DNA of 64,000 nt from an uncultured delta proteobacterium (GCA_963723355.1 CAVRQQ010000003.1:6992-70991); one strand, 5' to 3'. Positions 280 through 43,564 are shown, counted from the stretch's first letter. A program made the numbers and translations. The notes: generated by a model not told the origin, from the letters alone.

Positions 280-355
280 TGGCTCCCCGAGTTGGACTCG
301 AACCAACGACAAGCGGATTAACAGTCCGCTGCTCTACCAGCTGAGCTATCGGGGA
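280..355 (-). tRNA. tRNA-Asn (anticodon GTT)
   Basis: The reverse complement folds as a cloverleaf: acceptor TCCCCGA/TCGGGGA, anticodon loop CTGTTAA, T-arm GTTGG-TTCGAGT-CCAAC. CCA is encoded. Confidence 0.93.
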
Positions 356-8792: not shown

Positions 8793-8918
8793 GCCGGCAC
8801 AAGTGACAGCCAGGCACCCCCGCGGCACACGGCTGAGGCCGCTGCCGCTGCTCCCTTCCGGGCCTGACGGAGTTCACGGCCGTCCGTTGCGCGGGACCCG
8901 GCTGTCACTTCTGACGGC
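8793..8918 (-). ncRNA. ffs: signal recognition particle RNA (small/4.5S type); ends approximate
   Basis: The minus strand contains CAGGCCCGGAAGGGAGCAGC, matching the conserved domain IV motif of E. coli 4.5S RNA (CAGGUCCGGAAGGAAGCAGC). It is closed by a long terminal stem GCCGTCAGAAGTGACAGCC/GGCTGTCACTTGTGCCGGC. The position upstream of dnaX is typical. Confidence 0.85.
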
Positions 8919-9046: not shown

Positions 9047-9136
<90 letters not shown>

Positions 9137-35143: not shown

Positions 35144-35175
35144 AGGTTGGTTGAAATTTCACTTTAGATGTTTAG

Positions 35176-35210
35176 AAGGGCAACAGAGGGTTAATCTGTT
35201 GCCCTTTTTT
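35176..35210 (+). terminator. hairpin plus T-run after the DUF4019 gene (also the outer end of repeat copy A)
   Basis: AAGGGCAACAG-N9-CTGTTGCCCTT followed by TTTT. Confidence 0.6.
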
Positions 35211-35672
35211 GTTGTGCTATGGATTTAAGATAAAATCAAAATCCGGGGGTTGCGCCCCCCGACTGCGCCTTACTCTTTTGCTGGCCCAAAAGAGTAAGCA
35301 GAAAAGGGCCTGCGCTGCGCTGGGCACTTCTTACACGTCAGGGCGGTAACTTCAATTCAGTGAGTTCTACCGATTAAGAGTCTACGTTTCCCCCGCAGGA
35401 TCCGAGGCTCTTGAGAGCCTCTTCTTTTGTGGAGGGTTGCGTCTACTGCGGCAGTCTTTTTTTTACGCTTTTCCCTTGTAAGTCACAGAGAAAGGTCAGG
35501 CCCTTTGACACAGGGCCGGATTCCCATCAGGTAGGGTTCTTGACGTCATGGAAATCCGGCAAAGGAGATGCCCTCCGCAAGGAGAAGGCATTTTTGCATA
35601 CTTTTGTTGCCGGACAAAAGTATGGCGTCTGGCGGGACGCAACCCGCCGGTTTTGTTGTTAAGAAAATAGAA

Positions 35673-35702
35673 AAGGGCAACAGATTTAAACCTGTTGCCC
35701 TT
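35673..35702 (-). terminator. hairpin downstream of purA (also the outer end of repeat copy A)
   Basis: On the minus strand, AAGGGCAACAG-N8-CTGTTGCCCTT followed by TTCTATTTTC. Confidence 0.5.
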
Positions 35703-35729
35703 TGACAATAGCCATATTTTTGCAAACAA

Positions 35730-37028
<1,299 letters not shown>

Positions 37029-38306
37029 CTAAATCCGGAATTGTCCGGATTCGATCGCTGCGCTTGTCACGCAGGTATTTTCACCGTCCGCAGTGCGGAT
37101 CAGGATCATTTCTTCTCCTGCCGGGTCAATCACCAGCAGGTAACGGTAATGCATGCGCCGGGCGTAGTCGAGACTGGCCGCCTGGTCACGCTCGATAATG
37201 TCACGGGCCACCGAGTAACCCTGCTTGCGCAGAACCGCGGCCAGGTGCTGGGCCGGGGCCTTGTCCTGTCCTGATGAGAAGAGCAGGATATCGGTGCCCT
37301 CTTCGGCGCGCTCGTCGAGAACCCTGTCGAGGGCGAAGAGCAGGTTGTACAGGTTAAAGGCAAAGCCGGTTGCCGGAGCAGCGAACCCGTACCGCTCGGT
37401 CAGCCCGTCGTAACGGCCGCCGGCACAGACCGCCCTGCCGAAACCGGACAGGAAGCCCTGGAATATCAGCCCGCTATGGTAATCGAAACCGCGCATTTCA
37501 CCAAGGTCTAAAGTGATGTGTTCTTCGATACCGTAAACCGTAAGCACCTCCAGGATTCTTTCGAGGTTGTCCAGAGCCTTCTGTGATGCGGGATTGGTGA
37601 TCACCTGCCGGGCCTGGTCAAGGGTCTCGCGGCCACCGTAGAGCCTGGGCAGGGCAAGCAGCTCGACGCGCTGCCGGTCGGTCAGCGGCAGGTCCTTGAG
37701 CTTCTGCTGCAGGCCGGAGATGTCCTTGGCGGCGATCGCAGTTCTCACGTCACGGGATTGTGCAGCATCGAGCGGCAGGTCGTCGAGGACTCCGCGCAGA
37801 AATTCAACCTGGCCGATATCGATGGTGAACCCGGTCGCGCCGACGGCCTGCAGGCACATGACCGCCATGGCGATCATTTCTGCGTCGGCTTCGGGCCCGT
37901 TCAGGCCGATCAGTTCGACCCCGGATTGATAAATCTGCCGGTCCTTGCCGAGTTGCTGTTCGGTATGGCGCAGTACGCGCCCATTGTAGCAGAGACGGAA
38001 AGGCAGCGGCATGTCACGCATGCGGGTTGCGGCAATCCTCGCTACCTGAGGAGTGATGTCGGGGGGGAAGGCGACCAGACGACCGGTCTGGCGGTCGTCG
38101 AAACGAAAGGTCTTTTCGCGCAGATCGGTGCCCAGTCCGAGCTCGAGGACCGAAAGGTCCTCCAGGATGGCCGGAGCAACCGGGCGAAAACCCCAGGAAC
38201 GGTAGATGCTGCGCAGGGTGTTTTGCAGGTAGTCAAGCTTGGCTGCTTTAACCGGCAGAAAATCTTTCACACCGGTTGGCAGGCGCGTTTCCATGATGTT
38301 TGACAC
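37029..38306 (-). CDS. hisZ: ATP phosphoribosyltransferase regulatory subunit HisZ
   Basis: 425-aa HisRS-like paralog without an anticodon-binding domain, adjacent to purA. Confidence 0.8.
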   Translation of the reverse strand: MSNIMETRLPTGVKDFLPVKAAKLDYLQNTLRSIYRSWGFRPVAPAILEDLSVLELGLGTDLREKTFRFDDRQTGRLVAFPPDITPQVARIAATRMRDMPLPFRLCYNGRVLRHTEQQLGKDRQIYQSGVELIGLNGPEADAEMIAMAVMCLQAVGATGFTIDIGQVEFLRGVLDDLPLDAAQSRDVRTAIAAKDISGLQQKLKDLPLTDRQRVELLALPRLYGGRETLDQARQVITNPASQKALDNLERILEVLTVYGIEEHITLDLGEMRGFDYHSGLIFQGFLSGFGRAVCAGGRYDGLTERYGFAAPATGFAFNLYNLLFALDRVLDERAEEGTDILLFSSGQDKAPAQHLAAVLRKQGYSVARDIIERDQAASLDYARRMHYRYLLVIDPAGEEMILIRTADGENTCVTSAAIESGQFRI

Positions 38307-38318
38307 GATCGAGTCTTT

Positions 38319-39902
38319 CTATAATACGATCTGGTTTGCCGCCACGATGTGCGGGTGGGCGCGCAATTTTTCCAGAGTTTTGTCTGGAATGCAACTGTCA
38401 ACATTGATCAGGGAAACGGCTTGCCCGTCGATTGATTGTCGCGTCAGGTTCATGCCGGCAATGTTGATTTCCGCTTCACCAAGCACCTGTCCGATGAAGC
38501 CGATAATGCCGGGGCGGTCCTCGTTGAACAACACCAGGAGATGGCCGCTGGGGATCGCTTCGACGTTGCAGCCGTTGACGCGCACGATGCGGTAATCTCC
38601 TTCGCCGAACATCGCACCGCACACGGAGTGTTCTCCGTCCGCGCCGACAACGGTCAGGCGGATCATGCTGGAGAATCCCCGGGTTGACTGGCTGCGGGTT
38701 TCGGTGACCCGGATGCGGCGTTCCCTGGCCAGGTGAGGGGCGTTGATATAGTTGGCTTCGGAGCCGATCATCGGCGTCAGAATGCCTTTTAACGCCGCCA
38801 TGGTCAAGGGTTCGGTCGGGTTGTTGGTGACGGTTCCGGCATACTCCAGGCGGACCTCTTCGAGACCCTTGCCGTACAGCTGGGCCTGGAATGAACCCAG
38901 CCGTTCGGCCAGGTCCAGATGCGGTCGCAGAGTGGCCAGAAGGTCGGCGCTGATCGACGGGACGTTCACCGCGTTGACGATGATCCCTCTCAGCAGAAAC
39001 TCAACGACCTGGGAGGCGATCTGCACCGTTACGTTTACCTGGGCATCACGGGTGGCGGTGCGCAGGTGAGGGGTGCAGATAACCTGGTCGAGGCTTAGCA
39101 GCGGATTGTCCTTGGCCGGAGGCTCTTTGTCAAAGACATCGATTGCCGCCCCTGCAATGTGCCCGTCACGAATCGCTTCAGCCAGGGCGTTCTCGTCGAT
39201 CAAGCCTCCCGTTGCGCAGTTGATAATGTGGCATCCCGGCTTGGTCCTGGCGAGGGTTTCCCGATCCAGGATGTTGGCAGTTTCCGCGTTGCGTGGCGTG
39301 TGCAGGGTCAGGAAGTCGGAACGGCTCAGCAACTCTTCAAAGTCAACCTGTTCTGCTCCCAGCAGGCGGACCGTATCTTCTGTCAGGTAGGGGTCGTAAA
39401 CAATCGCCTTCATTTTCAGTGCAATGGCCCGTTCAACGACCAGTCGGCCGATTTTGCCAGCACCCAGGACTCCGAGGGTCTTGCCGGCCACTTCGATGCC
39501 GAGAAATTTCTCTGCCTCCCAGTGGCCGTTTTTGGTTGATTGGCTGGCGCTGGGAATCTGCCTGGCCAGGGAGAAAATCATCGCTATGGTATGTTCAGCG
39601 GTTGTGGTTGTGCTGCCGAAGGGGGTATGCATAATGACCACACCCTTGCGGTTTGCTGCATCCAGATCGAGGTTGCTGGTGCCGACACCGGCGCGACCGA
39701 CGACCTTGAGGCGCGTGGCCGCCTGGAACACCTGTTCAGTGACCAGGGTGCCGCTGCGGACGATCAGTGCATCTGCATCGGTTACCGCCTGCAGCAACTG
39801 CTCGGTAGACAGTCCCGGCTGATAATCCAGCTCGATACCTTCTGCCTGTTCCAGTATCTGGAGTCCCTCGGTGGGAAATTTGTCAGAAACAAGTACCTTC
39901 AT
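38319..39902 (-). CDS. serA: D-3-phosphoglycerate dehydrogenase
   Basis: Long-form SerA with an ACT domain. Start set at MKVLVSDKF (39902), because the track start at 40025 would run up to the pepA stop. Confidence 0.9.
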   Translation of the reverse strand: MKVLVSDKFPTEGLQILEQAEGIELDYQPGLSTEQLLQAVTDADALIVRSGTLVTEQVFQAATRLKVVGRAGVGTSNLDLDAANRKGVVIMHTPFGSTTTTAEHTIAMIFSLARQIPSASQSTKNGHWEAEKFLGIEVAGKTLGVLGAGKIGRLVVERAIALKMKAIVYDPYLTEDTVRLLGAEQVDFEELLSRSDFLTLHTPRNAETANILDRETLARTKPGCHIINCATGGLIDENALAEAIRDGHIAGAAIDVFDKEPPAKDNPLLSLDQVICTPHLRTATRDAQVNVTVQIASQVVEFLLRGIIVNAVNVPSISADLLATLRPHLDLAERLGSFQAQLYGKGLEEVRLEYAGTVTNNPTEPLTMAALKGILTPMIGSEANYINAPHLARERRIRVTETRSQSTRGFSSMIRLTVVGADGEHSVCGAMFGEGDYRIVRVNGCNVEAIPSGHLLVLFNEDRPGIIGFIGQVLGEAEINIAGMNLTRQSIDGQAVSLINVDSCIPDKTLEKLRAHPHIVAANQIVL

Positions 39903-39973
39903 GATGGGGCCCGTCACAGAATAGAAAATGTGCCACCAGTATTTATTTATACCCGAACTCAATAACCTAGCAA

Positions 39974-40005
39974 CCGGCCTTTCACCTGTCAAGACGAAAG
40001 GCCGG
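39974..40005 (-). terminator. stem-loop downstream of pepA
   Basis: 10-bp stem CCGGCCTTTC/GAAAGGCCGG. The downstream tail is only weakly U-rich. Confidence 0.4.
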
Positions 40006-40028
40006 CACATACGGCCGTTGAACAACGG

Positions 40029-41534
40029 TTATTCTGCGGCAGGCAGATTGTGCAAAAATTCAATCAGCAGCCGGACGCCTACGCCGGTCCCACCTTTCGG
40101 TATGTAAGGCTGATCCTGGTCGCGCCAGGCCGTCCCGGCGATGTCCAGATGGGCCCAGCGGAAATCATTGGCAAACTTCTTCAGAAAGGCTGCTGCGGTG
40201 ATCGTGCCGGCCGGCCGGCCACCGGTGTTCTTGACGTCGGCAACGCTGCTCTTGATCAGCTGGTCATACTCATCCCAAAGCGGCAGTTGCCAGAGGCGTT
40301 CACCGCTTTTCTCTCCGGCGTCCAACAGCGACTGGACAAGGCCCTGGTCGTTGCCGAGGACGGCCGTGGCCTGGTGTCCCAGGGCAATGATGCAGGCTCC
40401 GGTCAGGGTTGCCAGGTCGATAACCAGCTTTGGCTGGTAACGTTTCGCATAAGTCAGGGCGTCGGCGAGGATCAGGCGGCCTTCGGCATCGGTGTTGAGG
40501 ACTTCGATCGTCTGGCCGGAGAGGCTGGTCAATATGTCGCCGGGCCGATAGGCTGTTCCTGACGGCATGTTCTCGGCCGCAGGGATGATGCCGACCAGAT
40601 TGACCGGCAACTCGAGCAGTGAGGCTGCCAGCATGGTGCCAATGACCGCTGCGCCACCACCCATATCCATCTTCATCTCGTCCATCTTGTCGGCCGATTT
40701 CAACGATATGCCGCCGGAGTCAAAAGTGACGCCCTTGCCGACCAGGGCGACCGGCGCCTCATCTTTTCTGCCGCCATGATGTTCCAGGATAATCAGCCGG
40801 GGCTCTCGTACGCTGCCCTGGGCTACGCCGAGCAGGGCGCCGCAGCCTTCCTTGGCCAATTCTTTCTGGCCGAGGATCTTGCACTTCAGTCTGCTTTCGT
40901 TCGCTGCAGCACGGGCCTGTTCAGCGAGGAAGGCAGGTGACTTTATATTCCCTGGCGCATTGACGAGATCACGTGTCAAGACCACGGCCCGGCAGAGTTT
41001 TTGTGCCTTTTCGACGGCAACCTCGCAGCCTTTCTTGTTTTGTTGCGCTTCAATCGCCAGAGTTACGGATTTTGGCAGTTTGCGTGAGCCCCTGGCTTTT
41101 TCGTCGAGGAACAGGTCATAACGGTAGCTGGCCAGGAGAAGCCCTTCCGCTGCAGCCTGAATTTGTGCGGTATAATCGCTTTCGCCGGCATCGAGCGGTA
41201 AGGCAAAGGCCATCTGGCCGAACTTTTTCTCTGCAATCAGCTGTATCGCCTGGCCGGCGGCGCGGCGGATCTTCTCGGCGGTGGTCTGTTCTGCAGGGCC
41301 GAGGCCGACGAGAAGGACGCGTTCTGCCGGAAGGTGCCCGGCGGGCTGGAAAAGAATCTGCTCGTCCGCTTTGGCGGAAAATTCACCATTGCGCTGCGCC
41401 TTGCGAAGCAGACCGCCGAGCTTCTGATCAAGTTCTTTAAACAGAGGGTTTGAAAAATCCTTCTCGCAGGCACAGATGACCATGCAGGAAGTCTTTATTT
41501 GCAGCGGGGATGCTTTGCGGATTTTGATGTCCAT
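40029..41534 (-). CDS. pepA: leucyl aminopeptidase
   Basis: 501 aa with the M17 signature NTDAEGRLILAD. Confidence 0.95.
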   Translation of the reverse strand: MDIKIRKASPLQIKTSCMVICACEKDFSNPLFKELDQKLGGLLRKAQRNGEFSAKADEQILFQPAGHLPAERVLLVGLGPAEQTTAEKIRRAAGQAIQLIAEKKFGQMAFALPLDAGESDYTAQIQAAAEGLLLASYRYDLFLDEKARGSRKLPKSVTLAIEAQQNKKGCEVAVEKAQKLCRAVVLTRDLVNAPGNIKSPAFLAEQARAAANESRLKCKILGQKELAKEGCGALLGVAQGSVREPRLIILEHHGGRKDEAPVALVGKGVTFDSGGISLKSADKMDEMKMDMGGGAAVIGTMLAASLLELPVNLVGIIPAAENMPSGTAYRPGDILTSLSGQTIEVLNTDAEGRLILADALTYAKRYQPKLVIDLATLTGACIIALGHQATAVLGNDQGLVQSLLDAGEKSGERLWQLPLWDEYDQLIKSSVADVKNTGGRPAGTITAAAFLKKFANDFRWAHLDIAGTAWRDQDQPYIPKGGTGVGVRLLIEFLHNLPAAE

Positions 41535-41711: not shown

Positions 41712-42249
41712 AAGGGCAACAGGCTAACCACCTGTTGCCCTTGTCCTTATTAAAACAAAACCGGCGGGTCGCGTCCCGCCAGACGCCTTACTTTTTTCCA
41801 GGCGGCGACAAAAAGTAAGCAAAAAGCGCCTTTCTCCTTGCGGAGGGCATCTCCTTTGCCAGGTTTCTGTGACGTCAAGAACTTGCTGTGATGGGGACCG
41901 GCCCTGTGTCCGAAGGGCCTGACGTTTCTGTGTGAGCCTCTCCTTTTGGGAAAAGCTGCAACGAACAAGACAACTTTTGCAAGCTCTTCCACAACAGGAG
42001 GGACTCACAAGAGCCCCGGCTCCTGCGGGGGAAGTGTAGACTCCTGGTCAATTAGAACAATCCGAATTGATGTCGCTGAAATCGGCAAAGGACATGCCCT
42101 CCGCAAGGAGCAGGCATTTTTGCATACTTTTTTGCCAGCAAAAAGTATGGCGCGTCGGGCGGGCGCGACCCCCGGGTTCTGGCTTTTTTTAGTCTTTGAA
42201 GTCCAAAACACAAGCAACAAGGGCAACAGATTAACGATCTGTTGCCCTT
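41712..42249 (-). repeat. ~530-bp structured intergenic repeat element, copy B (inverted relative to copy A)
   Basis: Outer hairpins at 41712-41742 and 42219-42249. The arms and core align with copy A when reverse-complemented. Confidence 0.8.
42219..42249 (-). terminator. hairpin downstream of hemL (also the outer end of repeat copy B)
   Basis: On the minus strand, AAGGGCAACAG-N9-CTGTTGCCCTT followed by a G/T-rich tail. Confidence 0.45.
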
Positions 42250-42280
42250 GTTGTTCACTGTAAATAATTTGATACTTATC

Positions 42281-43564
42281 TTAAAGCGCCCTGAACGCCT
42301 TGCGAGCCGCCTCAATTGTCCGGTCGAGATCGTCCTGCGAGTGGGCGATGCTCATAAAGCCCGCTTCATACTGTGAAGGCGCCAGGTTGATCCCCTCTTC
42401 GAGCATGCTGCGGAAGAATTTGGCGAAGACCTGTGGGGTCTCCGGTTTGACGTCGCTGAAACAGAATACCTCTTCCGGCTGGAAGTAGGTGCAGAACATG
42501 CCGCCGACCCGTTGCAGGGAAGTCGGGATCTTTGCTTCAGCCGCGGCTTCCTGCAGCCCCTTGCAGAGGTAAGCGCTTTTTTCTTCAATCGCCTCGTAGA
42601 AGCCATCTTCCTGGAGTAACTCCAGGGTGGCAATGCCGGCACTCATGGCCAGCGGGTTGCCGGAGAGGGTTCCGGCCTGGTAGACACCGCCCTCGGGTGA
42701 GAGGGACTCCATGATCTCCCGTTTGCCGCCGAAAGCGCCGACCGGCAGGCCGCCGCCGATGATCTTGCCGAGGCAGACCAGGTCTCCGCGGACGCCAAAC
42801 CGCTCCTGGGCGCCGCCGTAGGCGACCCGGAAGCCGGTCATGACTTCGTCGATAATCAGGATGATTCCTTCGGCGTCACAGAGCTGGCGCAACCCCTCAA
42901 GGAAGCCAGGTCTGGGCGCGACACAGCCCATGTTGCCGGCAATCGGCTCAAGGATGATGCAGGCGACTTCGCCCTGGTTGGCCGCAACCATCTCCCTGAC
43001 TTCTTCCAGGTTGTTGTAGGTGGCGGTGAGGGTATGCTTGGCAAAATCAGCCGGTACGCCGGGGGAGGTCGGCACGCCAAAAGTTGCCAGGCCGCTGCCG
43101 GCCTTGACCAGAAGCGAGTCGGCGTGACCATGGTAGCAGCCGTCAAACTTGATGATTTTGTCGCGCCCGGTATAGCCGCGTGCCAGGCGAATGGCGCTCA
43201 TGGTCGCTTCGGTGCCTGAGGAGACCATGCGGACCTTTTCAATATTCGGGTAGGCCGCGCAGACCATCTCGGCCAGTTGGGTTTCACGAGCGGTCGGGGC
43301 GCCGAAGGAGGCTCCGGTTGCTGCCGTCTGCTGAATAGCTTCAACGACCTTGGGGTGACAATGGCCGAGGATCATCGGGCCCCAGGAGCCGACGTAATCG
43401 ATATAGCTGTTGCCGTCCGCGTCGAAGATCTTCGATCCTGCGGCGCGAGCGATGAAGATCGGGTCGCAACCGACGGATTTGAATGCACGGACCGGGCTGT
43501 TGACGCCACCCGGAATAACCTGTTTGGCTTTGATAAAAAGTTCGGCAGACTGCTGGTGATTCAT
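42281..43564 (-). CDS. hemL: glutamate-1-semialdehyde 2,1-aminomutase
   Basis: Start at [10 protein letters not shown] (AAGGAG RBS). Carries the motif [10 protein letters not shown]. Confidence 0.95.

Follow-up and report, generated by a model that had tools for sequence, protein, structure and literature searches.

The window analysed here, a stretch of 64,000 nucleotides from an uncultured delta proteobacterium (GCA_963723355.1 CAVRQQ010000003.1:6992-70991), contains two inverted copies of an element of ~530 nt, copy A (35176-35703) and copy B (41712-42249), which judging from their sequence are most likely two old members of a repeat family spread through the chromosomes of an uncultured sediment clade of Desulfuromonadales. 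With moderate confidence the family is interpreted as a mobile, non-autonomous repeat which inserts at terminator regions and which at the same time works as a double terminator in both directions, and, as part of the same interpretation, the paired substitutions in its hairpins as the trace of selection for stem formation. On this reading the hairpins would terminate transcription and the copies would have spread by transposition. An element of this kind would land within, or just 3' of, the intrinsic terminators behind genes, and a transcript arriving from a flanking gene would on either strand first meet an outer hairpin with its T-run and, when reading through, later the G+C hairpin with GGTTTT in the far arm. 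Such a two-way double stop would make the element harmless or even useful between genes, above all between convergent ones.

When the reverse complement of copy B was aligned with copy A (MAFFT) the two matched end to end with several indels, as the sequence-only reading of the window had claimed, and its by-eye estimate that roughly three quarters of the positions match agrees with 391 of 509 (77%) in the columns of the family model; a wider pairwise alignment including the flanks gave 396 of 558 (71%). Every hairpin listed in that reading was found where it had been placed, among them the four versions of arm hairpin 2 and the core hairpin, GAGGCTC-TTGA-GAGCCTC in copy A and GGGGCTC-TTGT-GAGTCCC on the minus strand of copy B, which differ by one A-U to G-C and one G-C to G.U change (Table 1). 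A profile of 33 other copies recovered copy B with nhmmer at E = 6e-127, which excludes a likeness by chance, and the family profile recovered copy A at E = 1.6e-162. What had to be abandoned is the picture of one element and its second copy, since copy B is just one of well over 150 copies in a dispersed family.

At either end of the element stands an outer hairpin, and an asymmetric core is enclosed by two arms of ~190 nt, imperfect inverted repeats of each other that both contain a G+C hairpin, a hairpin 2 and a GCAA-loop hairpin. The outer palindrome, AAGGGCAACAG-N8/9-CTGTTGCCCTT, occurs four times in the window and only at the ends of copies A and B; its N9 form gives three matches (0 expected in shuffles) and the fourth, at 35672-35703, has an 8-nt loop. 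For copy B the predicted fold is much more stable than that of shuffled sequence, whichever strand is taken (z = -14.2 and -14.1). The left arm of copy B deviates from the family, with a match to the consensus of only 0.55 across model positions 128-182 and with the right-arm 27-mer in it, so that this 27-mer is present in both arms and is 96% complementary between them, and the local fold of the arm with the degenerate G+C hairpin GC-L reaches -18.9 kcal/mol compared to a family mean of ~-29. From the sequence it looks as if this arm was overwritten with the right-arm 27-mer, in a manner that resembles arm-to-arm conversion. In copies A and B alike the right-type arm has a palindrome, TGACGTCA, at its inner edge (35541-35549 and 41870-41877), which is unconserved, the family consensus at this place being TTGAAGTCA.

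A scan with a 21-mer from the arm, using one genome per species, revealed at least 103 stretches, and among the matches listed nearly all are in metagenome-assembled genomes (MAGs) of Desulfuromonadales or labelled 'delta proteobacterium', together with the isolate IMCC39146, which has copies at L038, L040 and L082. With an nhmmer profile of full copies at least 91 copies covering at least 350 of the 528 model positions were found, besides ~40 fragments; 89 of these 91 near-full copies, from seven MAGs or isolates of Desulfuromonadales and with near-duplicates of the window dropped, were analysed further. Two MAGs with long contigs harbour at least 38 and at least 33 near-full copies. A metagenome scan anchored beside the core hairpin added 76 near-full copies on 91 sediment contigs, bringing the family to at least ~170 copies in uncultured sediment Desulfuromonadales, and contigs encoding an identical PurA protein likewise derive from sediment-type metagenomes. 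The repeated unit is the whole stretch of ~530 nt, outer hairpins included, with 90-99% conservation in the interior, 55-75% at the ends and the 27-mer as the most conserved piece. Among the metagenome contigs (L107-L186) many short ones start or stop within an element, which suggests that the family interrupts short-read assemblies of these sediment communities.

Translation of 70 copies in six frames showed no conserved open reading frame (ORF), none being common to more than 31 of the 70; a small toxin gene or peptide was therefore rejected and so was a type I toxin-antitoxin or antisense RNA locus, which would call for a conserved small hydrophobic ORF overlapped by an antisense RNA. Searches against Rfam 15 gave no match to the element, neither at the gathering threshold for the whole window nor at E <= 10 for the element itself, and the best partial look-alikes were terminator-like and, at 27 bits or less, far below threshold. 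Plasmid and phage collections searched in 'distant' mode held no match to the element, and nothing describing the family was found in searches of the literature on MITEs (miniature transposable elements with inverted repeats) in Geobacter and on MITEs that target terminators.

Several related repeats were observed that have only the right-hand module in common with the family (an hp9-like hairpin, the GCAA hairpin, hairpin 2, the G+C terminator and the outer hairpin) and differ in their left parts. They are situated at L029:5887-6102, L045:2302-2517, L064:5769-5950, L006:4908-5073, L021:1755-2064 and L052:1511-2218, some in tandem with full copies, and the G+C terminator, GGCGGGACGCGACCCGCC, is present also in other short modules. 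In a pair of orthologous copies from two MAGs (L063:1-609 and L071:3823-4421) model positions ~155-255, including the core hairpin, are swapped for ~165 nt of unrelated sequence.

Paired changes and terminator-like features of the hairpins

The earlier proposal that the stems are kept while their sequence changes was borne out in the larger alignment for hairpin 2, the G+C hairpins and a further hairpin, hp9, but not for the core hairpin. Among 49 distinct versions of hairpin 2, taken from both arms, 88.6% of the cells are paired and changes on both sides are seen in 7 of 12 pairs, with a covariation score of 0.293 compared to 0.139 +/- 0.013 when shuffled (0 of 500 reaching 0.293) and 0.04-0.11 with slid partners. 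The G+C hairpin exists with the stem types GGCGGG/CCCGCC, GGGGGG/CCCCCC, GTCGGG/CCCGAC and GGCAGT/ACTGCC, and hp9 shows paired swaps of U-A/A-U and U-A/C-G, its per-pair counts being taken from the profile alignment. In 35 copies a wholly different left arm is joined to an unchanged right arm and both left-arm hairpins still form with equal stability, and in one copy an unrelated longer hairpin stands in place of hairpin 2. The arms also differ from each other at paired positions, each of them being self-complementary. The pair counts are counts of sequences from related copies and not of independent events, and the signal, strong for hairpin 2, hp9 and the G+C hairpins, is phylogenetically uncorrected; since same-locus copies are not nearest relatives and the left arm of copy B appears overwritten, some of the paired changes may represent conversion between copies or between arms.

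The core hairpin, one of the cases for which compensation between copies A and B had been proposed, turned out to be nearly invariant; in 179 copies 4 of its changed cells are compensated, whereas 13 have A.C, 3 have G.T and 12 another mismatch, and the sole fully compensated type in the list of metagenome variants is that of copy B. Folding of single sequences and of alignments (alifold) predicted a panhandle between the arms. This structure was rejected as the arms are only 51-76% alike and in the 35 copies mentioned above the left arm is unrelated although the right one is unchanged; local folds of -27 to -30 kcal/mol were obtained, in those 35 copies as well, and low identity between the arms together with preserved local stability argues that the local hairpins, not the panhandle, are conserved.

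It had been left between RNA and single-stranded DNA at which level structure is selected, and of this a strand-specific signature could be confirmed in the outer hairpins only. When wobble pairs were counted in the distinct hairpin sequences of 179 copies, the left outer hairpin showed 49 G.T and 7 A.C (p = 7e-9) and the right one the opposite, 6 G.T and 28 A.C (p = 2e-4). Counts of G.T and A.C were not significant for GC-L (5 and 2), left hairpin 2 (16 and 11), the GCAA-loop hairpin (11 and 8), right hairpin 2 (5 and 7) and GC-R (5 and 6), while the core hairpin gave 3 and 13 (p = 0.02) and hp9 gave 9 and 2 (p = 0.065). In the outer hairpins wobble is thus tolerated only on the inward-reading strand, which is also the strand of the T-run, and folding energies agree with this; the combination is the signature expected of an RNA-level intrinsic terminator for incoming transcription. 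The right-arm hairpins favour the outward strand over the inward one in folding, by 42 to 0, 22 to 4 and 20 to 9, the 27-mer hairpin doing so in 42 of 42 distinct versions. Over model positions 125-380 it is the plus strand that folds better (69 to 20).

A terminator scan of two element regions revealed 10 and 8 terminator-like sites, compared to 1.2 and 1.5 expected. The T-run is located on the inner side of the outer hairpins and on the outer side of the G+C hairpins, where GGTTTT follows all stem variants, and all four oriented hairpins combine a G+C-rich stem-loop with a T-run on the transcribed strand, as in intrinsic terminators. A transcript on either strand consequently encounters two terminator-like sites in turn, first the outer hairpin at the near end and later the far arm's G+C hairpin.

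Insertion sites and turnover

The gaps between genes in which an element is situated are convergent in 40 cases, tandem in 51 and divergent in 12, compared to 91, 354 and 112 for the other gaps in the same loci, an enrichment in convergent gaps with an odds ratio of 3.25 (p = 1.3e-6). Within tandem gaps the orientation of the element is random (17 vs 15).

In the long-contig MAGs (CAWGUB and CAVQRZ) the repeat is longer by 40-80 nt at either side, where it continues into terminal modules of two related kinds, X and Y, giving a full unit of ~650-700 nt. Module X contains ..CTGCTGACAAAGTTCAG..TTCATGATAGAG and its consensus, CTGCTGACAAAGTTCAGCTTTGATGTTTAGA, stands beside many copies, module Y has X-like ends plus an extra terminator hairpin, and either module can adjoin either arm. 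Both begin with (C/T)TG(C/T)TGACAAA and look homologous, their exact ends being undefined. The modules were seen only beside elements and the X motif was found nowhere else in the 8-kb blocks around the copies; a separate small X-hairpin-Y element serving as insertion target was also considered, and none was seen in the loci around the copies.

A duplicated flank repeat above the 99th percentile of the control was found for 10 of 46 complete copies, a few more lying just below. The duplicated sequences are locus-specific palindromic hairpins of ~19-36 nt directly outside the terminal modules, for example AAAGCCCCGGTCATAAATGGCCGGGGCTTT, which occurs twice at L098:940-1570, with further cases in L057, L015, L035, L023, L076, L008 and L031, and the duplicated hairpin is evidently the terminator of the host gene. 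One pair of occupied and empty sites was identified, in which a 627-nt insertion in L091 adjoins the terminator of the upstream gene and the corresponding site in L101 is empty.

Comparison of orthologous loci revealed that copies are exchanged as well. In the metagenome contig L002, which is 97% identical to the window, the site of copy A between the DUF4019 gene and purA holds an inverted variant (L002:3990-4530) of only ~72% identity, and the boundaries of the exchange are the outer hairpins. The site of copy B is occupied too in L009, a MAG with flanks 87% identical over 8 kb. Copies at the same locus are 0.71-0.90 alike and are not each other's nearest relatives, compared to 0.875 among the copies within one MAG. 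At two orthologous loci of the two long-contig MAGs (L032/L062 and L033/L046) the elements have opposite orientation and are 78-82% identical, which argues for replacement and not for simple inversion; with flipped copies merely 72-82% identical at these loci and between L002 and the window, an inversion in situ as the sole cause was rejected. These comparisons indicate that the copies are still being turned over, whether through insertion, through conversion between copies or both.

Alternative readings and related systems

Several points weigh against a mobile bidirectional terminator. Conservation is higher in the interior than at the ends, opposite to what a typical MITE shows, and this hints at a function beyond that of a terminator cassette; the very conserved parts (core hairpin, hp9 and 27-mer) may be required for propagation or code for an RNA, and it is equally conceivable that RNAs transcribed within the element have their 3' ends at the outward-facing G+C terminators. 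A strand bias like that of the outer hairpins was not seen in the inner ones, which may for this reason act on both strands or as DNA. The test of gene context is based on crude longest-ORF gene calls, the duplicated hairpins are palindromic, which makes their orientation partly ambiguous, and the empty site is the only one found. No transposase or autonomous partner was found in the 8-kb blocks around the copies, and as the two window copies have neither clean terminal modules nor a flanking duplication, mobility is argued from their relatives.

The strongest competitor, which we nevertheless hold to be unlikely, supposes that the element encodes a structured non-coding RNA of ~300-350 nt, as one multicopy gene or as two convergent ones, with an internal promoter, an end at an outward-facing G+C terminator and the outer hairpins as insulators. 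In one explicit version of it, transcription would start at a σ54-type promoter in the complement of the 27-mer and proceed from the right arm into the core to end at the left G+C terminator. Such a gene would account for an interior conserved to 90-99% between variable ends and spacers, for G+C hairpins with GGTTTT facing outward at both sides, for the better folding of the right-arm hairpins on the outward strand and for the rank of the 27-mer as the most conserved piece, and the core-hairpin mismatches, mainly A.C on the plus strand (13 vs 3), would fit a minus-strand RNA; the related repeats, moreover, have the right-arm module alone in common. The complement of the 27-mer, CTCCTTGCGGAGGGCATCTCCTTTGCC (35558-35584 minus, 41834-41860 plus), does fit the σ54 -24/-12 core with GG-N10-GC and GGCA..TTGC, has the correct spacing and points into the core. 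However, the core positions fitted by GGGCATCTCCTTTGC are a single match noticed post hoc, the eight fixed bases being expected by chance in ~1-2% of elements of such size (own estimate), and the homologous left-arm motif has GG-N9-GC in the consensus, which is the wrong spacing. No σ70-like promoter was found inside the element when two regions were scanned, the sole matches being at the edge or outside, and reading the consensus of module X gave no convincing match either. The strand tests conflict, with positions 125-380 favouring the plus and the core hairpin the minus strand, the orientation relative to the neighbouring genes is random, ~70-130 copies per genome would be unusual for an RNA gene and no Rfam relative exists.

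It was also considered, and judged improbable, that there is no structural selection at all and that the compensations arise from template switching in quasi-palindromes together with conversion between arms and between copies, by which changes are copied from side to side. The right-arm 27-mer in the left arm of copy B, where the family consensus has another motif, the replacement of a copy at one locus, the lower likeness of same-locus than of within-genome copies and the fact that cells count sequences and not independent events would all be explained in this way, but template switching yields perfect pairs and cannot produce the opposite strand-specific G.T excess of the outer hairpins. 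Neither does it agree with arms that differ at paired positions and yet are each self-complementary, with the fixed side of the T-run in every hairpin or with the copy in which an unrelated longer hairpin replaces hairpin 2. An equally improbable extension of the mobile-terminator reading supposes an unseen enzyme that would recognise extruded or single-stranded terminator hairpins, cut at both sides and duplicate the hairpin, the outer hairpins themselves being such targets, with the interior as a ~300-nt structured RNA, possibly σ54 driven, in propagation or in control of the cassette. Finally, a composite transposon, or a segmental rearrangement of recent date, could have copies A and B as its ends, as these are inverted and bracket exactly four genes (purA-hisZ-serA-pepA, 6 kb, 35730-41534). 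This we find very hard to believe and the candidate was rejected, since the enclosed genes are housekeeping genes, the copies are just 77% identical, copy B occupies the same site in L009 and both belong to a family whose copies are dispersed and mostly single.

When the mobile bidirectional terminator is compared with known repeats, MITEs such as the Correia elements of Neisseria, ERIC/IRU and RUP are similar in being short, non-coding, intergenic and of high copy number, with inverted symmetry, strong hairpins and presence or absence among relatives. Known cases, among the Correia elements, serve as terminators or promoters for neighbouring genes. The present family shares with MITEs a short non-coding unit, many dispersed copies and insertion polymorphism (one case). 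Its outer hairpins and ~190-nt arms are inverted repeats, and the outermost modules X and Y, which the window copies lack in clean form, might provide terminal ones. It differs in its far larger size (530 nt, or ~650-700 nt with the end modules), in an interior more conserved than the ends, in the four oriented terminator-like hairpins per copy and in flanking duplications which, where seen, are whole palindromic host hairpins of ~19-36 nt instead of 2-10 bp, and no matching insertion sequence was found in the 8-kb blocks around the copies. With REP/BIME repeats (REPIN; enterobacteria and pseudomonads) and the RIME of rhizobia it has in common modular palindromic units, placement 3' of genes, a composition that varies at one locus among related strains and copies that evolve in concert within a genome. 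In contrast to REP/BIME, the element has no head of the GTAG type, its arms are separated by a long, unique and asymmetric core, and the outer palindrome of 29-31 nt is found inside elements in 123 of 126 occurrences, the remaining 3 being chance-like; a REP/BIME-type repeat was rejected as this palindrome does not occur singly.

Group IIC introns resemble the family in their sites at terminator stem-loops downstream of genes, and introns without an ORF have a similar length. The element is however symmetric with inverted arms and the host hairpins are duplicated, which is not so in group II insertion, and cmscan found no match to domain V/VI or Intron_gpII at the gathering threshold or at E <= 10, so that a group II intron was rejected. 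In the duplication of CRISPR repeats by Cas1-Cas2 and in casposons a palindromic target is duplicated on integration. The likeness to these systems concerns the footprint only, a palindrome of ~20-36 nt at both sides of the insert, and is meant as a lead; in contrast to them, no cas1-like gene or other protein is linked to the element. With rho-independent terminators the hairpins share the G+C-rich stem-loop, the T-run, wobble on the transcribed strand only (outer hairpins) and the site 3' of genes, but here four of them are set in a fixed mirror array that travels with ~250 nt of conserved non-terminator sequence.

If the mobile-terminator reading is correct, this clade of sediment Desulfuromonadales would devote in the order of 1% of its chromosome, a figure that we extrapolated from the two copies in 64 kb and the 38 or more of one MAG, to a repeat with two-way transcription stops. 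The family would then illustrate clearly how, in nature, a selfish element can earn its keep as a transcriptional insulator, and it could be a source of compact bidirectional terminator parts. For annotation, it would account for many strong 'structured RNA' signals in the host genomes and for frequent contig breaks in sediment assemblies. Bacterial repeats do not usually show duplicated host hairpins, copies that are exchanged at one and the same site or stronger conservation inside than at the ends, and these three features point to a propagation mechanism, or an RNA, as yet undescribed; a hairpin-duplicating insertion or an interior RNA, should either prove real, would raise the interest.

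Feature coordinates and surroundings

Coordinates of the two copies and their hairpins, counted from the first nucleotide of the window, are collected in Table 1.

Table 1. Features of copies A and B in the window
Feature	Position	Strand	Remark
Copy B, whole repeat unit	41712-42249	-	model positions 528 to 1 = 41713 to 42248; nhmmer, MAFFT
Copy B, outer hairpin OH-R, AAGGGCAACAG-N9-CTGTTGCCCTT	41712-41742	+	inward-reading on the plus strand of the window
Copy B, G+C hairpin GC-R, then TTTTGTTTTA	41761-41782	-	terminator-like, faces outward; terminator scan and compensated stem variants
Copy B, arm hairpin 2, CTTACTTTTT/AAAAAGTAAG	41787-41819	.	covariation test
Copy B, invariant 27-mer GGCAAAGGAGATGCCCTCCGCAAGGAG, GCAA-loop hairpin	41834-41860	-	96-99% conserved in the family; complement has GGCA-N7-TTGC
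Copy B, hp9, GGCCCT-loop-AGGGCC	41900-41919	.	family copies show paired swaps
Copy B, core hairpin, GGGGCTC-TTGT-GAGTCCC on minus	42000-42017	.	nearly invariant in the family; changes mostly uncompensated
Copy B, second 27-mer, other arm	42084-42110	+	family consensus has another motif here, CTGCGCTGCGCTGGGCATGTCTGG (~99% conserved)
Copy B, arm hairpin 2 of the other arm, CATACTTTTT/AAAAAGTATG	42123-42149	.	covariation test
Copy B, G+C hairpin GC-L, degenerate	42154-42186	+	absent from the terminator-scan list
Copy B, outer hairpin OH-L and CTTGTGTTTT	42215-42253	-	terminator-like site for the aminotransferase gene ending at 42281 (minus)
Copy A, whole repeat unit	35176-35703	+	nhmmer
Copy A, outer hairpins	35176-35206, 35672-35703		
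Copy A, G+C hairpins	35243-35262 (minus), 35629-35650 (plus)		
Copy A, hairpin 2	35269-35298, 35597-35624		
Copy A, core hairpin	35404-35421		
Copy A, hp9	35499-35517		
Copy A, 27-mer	35558-35584		
Degenerate terminal module X, GTTGGTTGAAATTTCACTTTAGATGTTTAGA	35145-35175	+	by-eye comparison with the X consensus CTGCTGACAAAGTTCAGCTTTGATGTTTAGA; directly 3' of the DUF4019 stop codon

The surroundings are made up of ordinary chromosomal genes in the order DUF4019 gene, copy A, then on the minus strand purA, a hisS/hisZ-like gene, serA and pepA, followed by copy B and an aminotransferase gene (minus). Elsewhere in the window Rfam matches identified unrelated ordinary genes, a bacterial small signal recognition particle RNA at 8805-8903 (minus, 75 bits), tRNA-Asn(GTT) at 280-355 (minus) and tRNA-Ser(GGA) at 9049-9136 (minus). 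Two pairs of short direct repeats, 5913-5940/24816-24843 and 9581-9605/28515-28539, are 79-84% identical and both spaced ~18.9 kb apart, and in these two regions of the window there may be paralogous genes.

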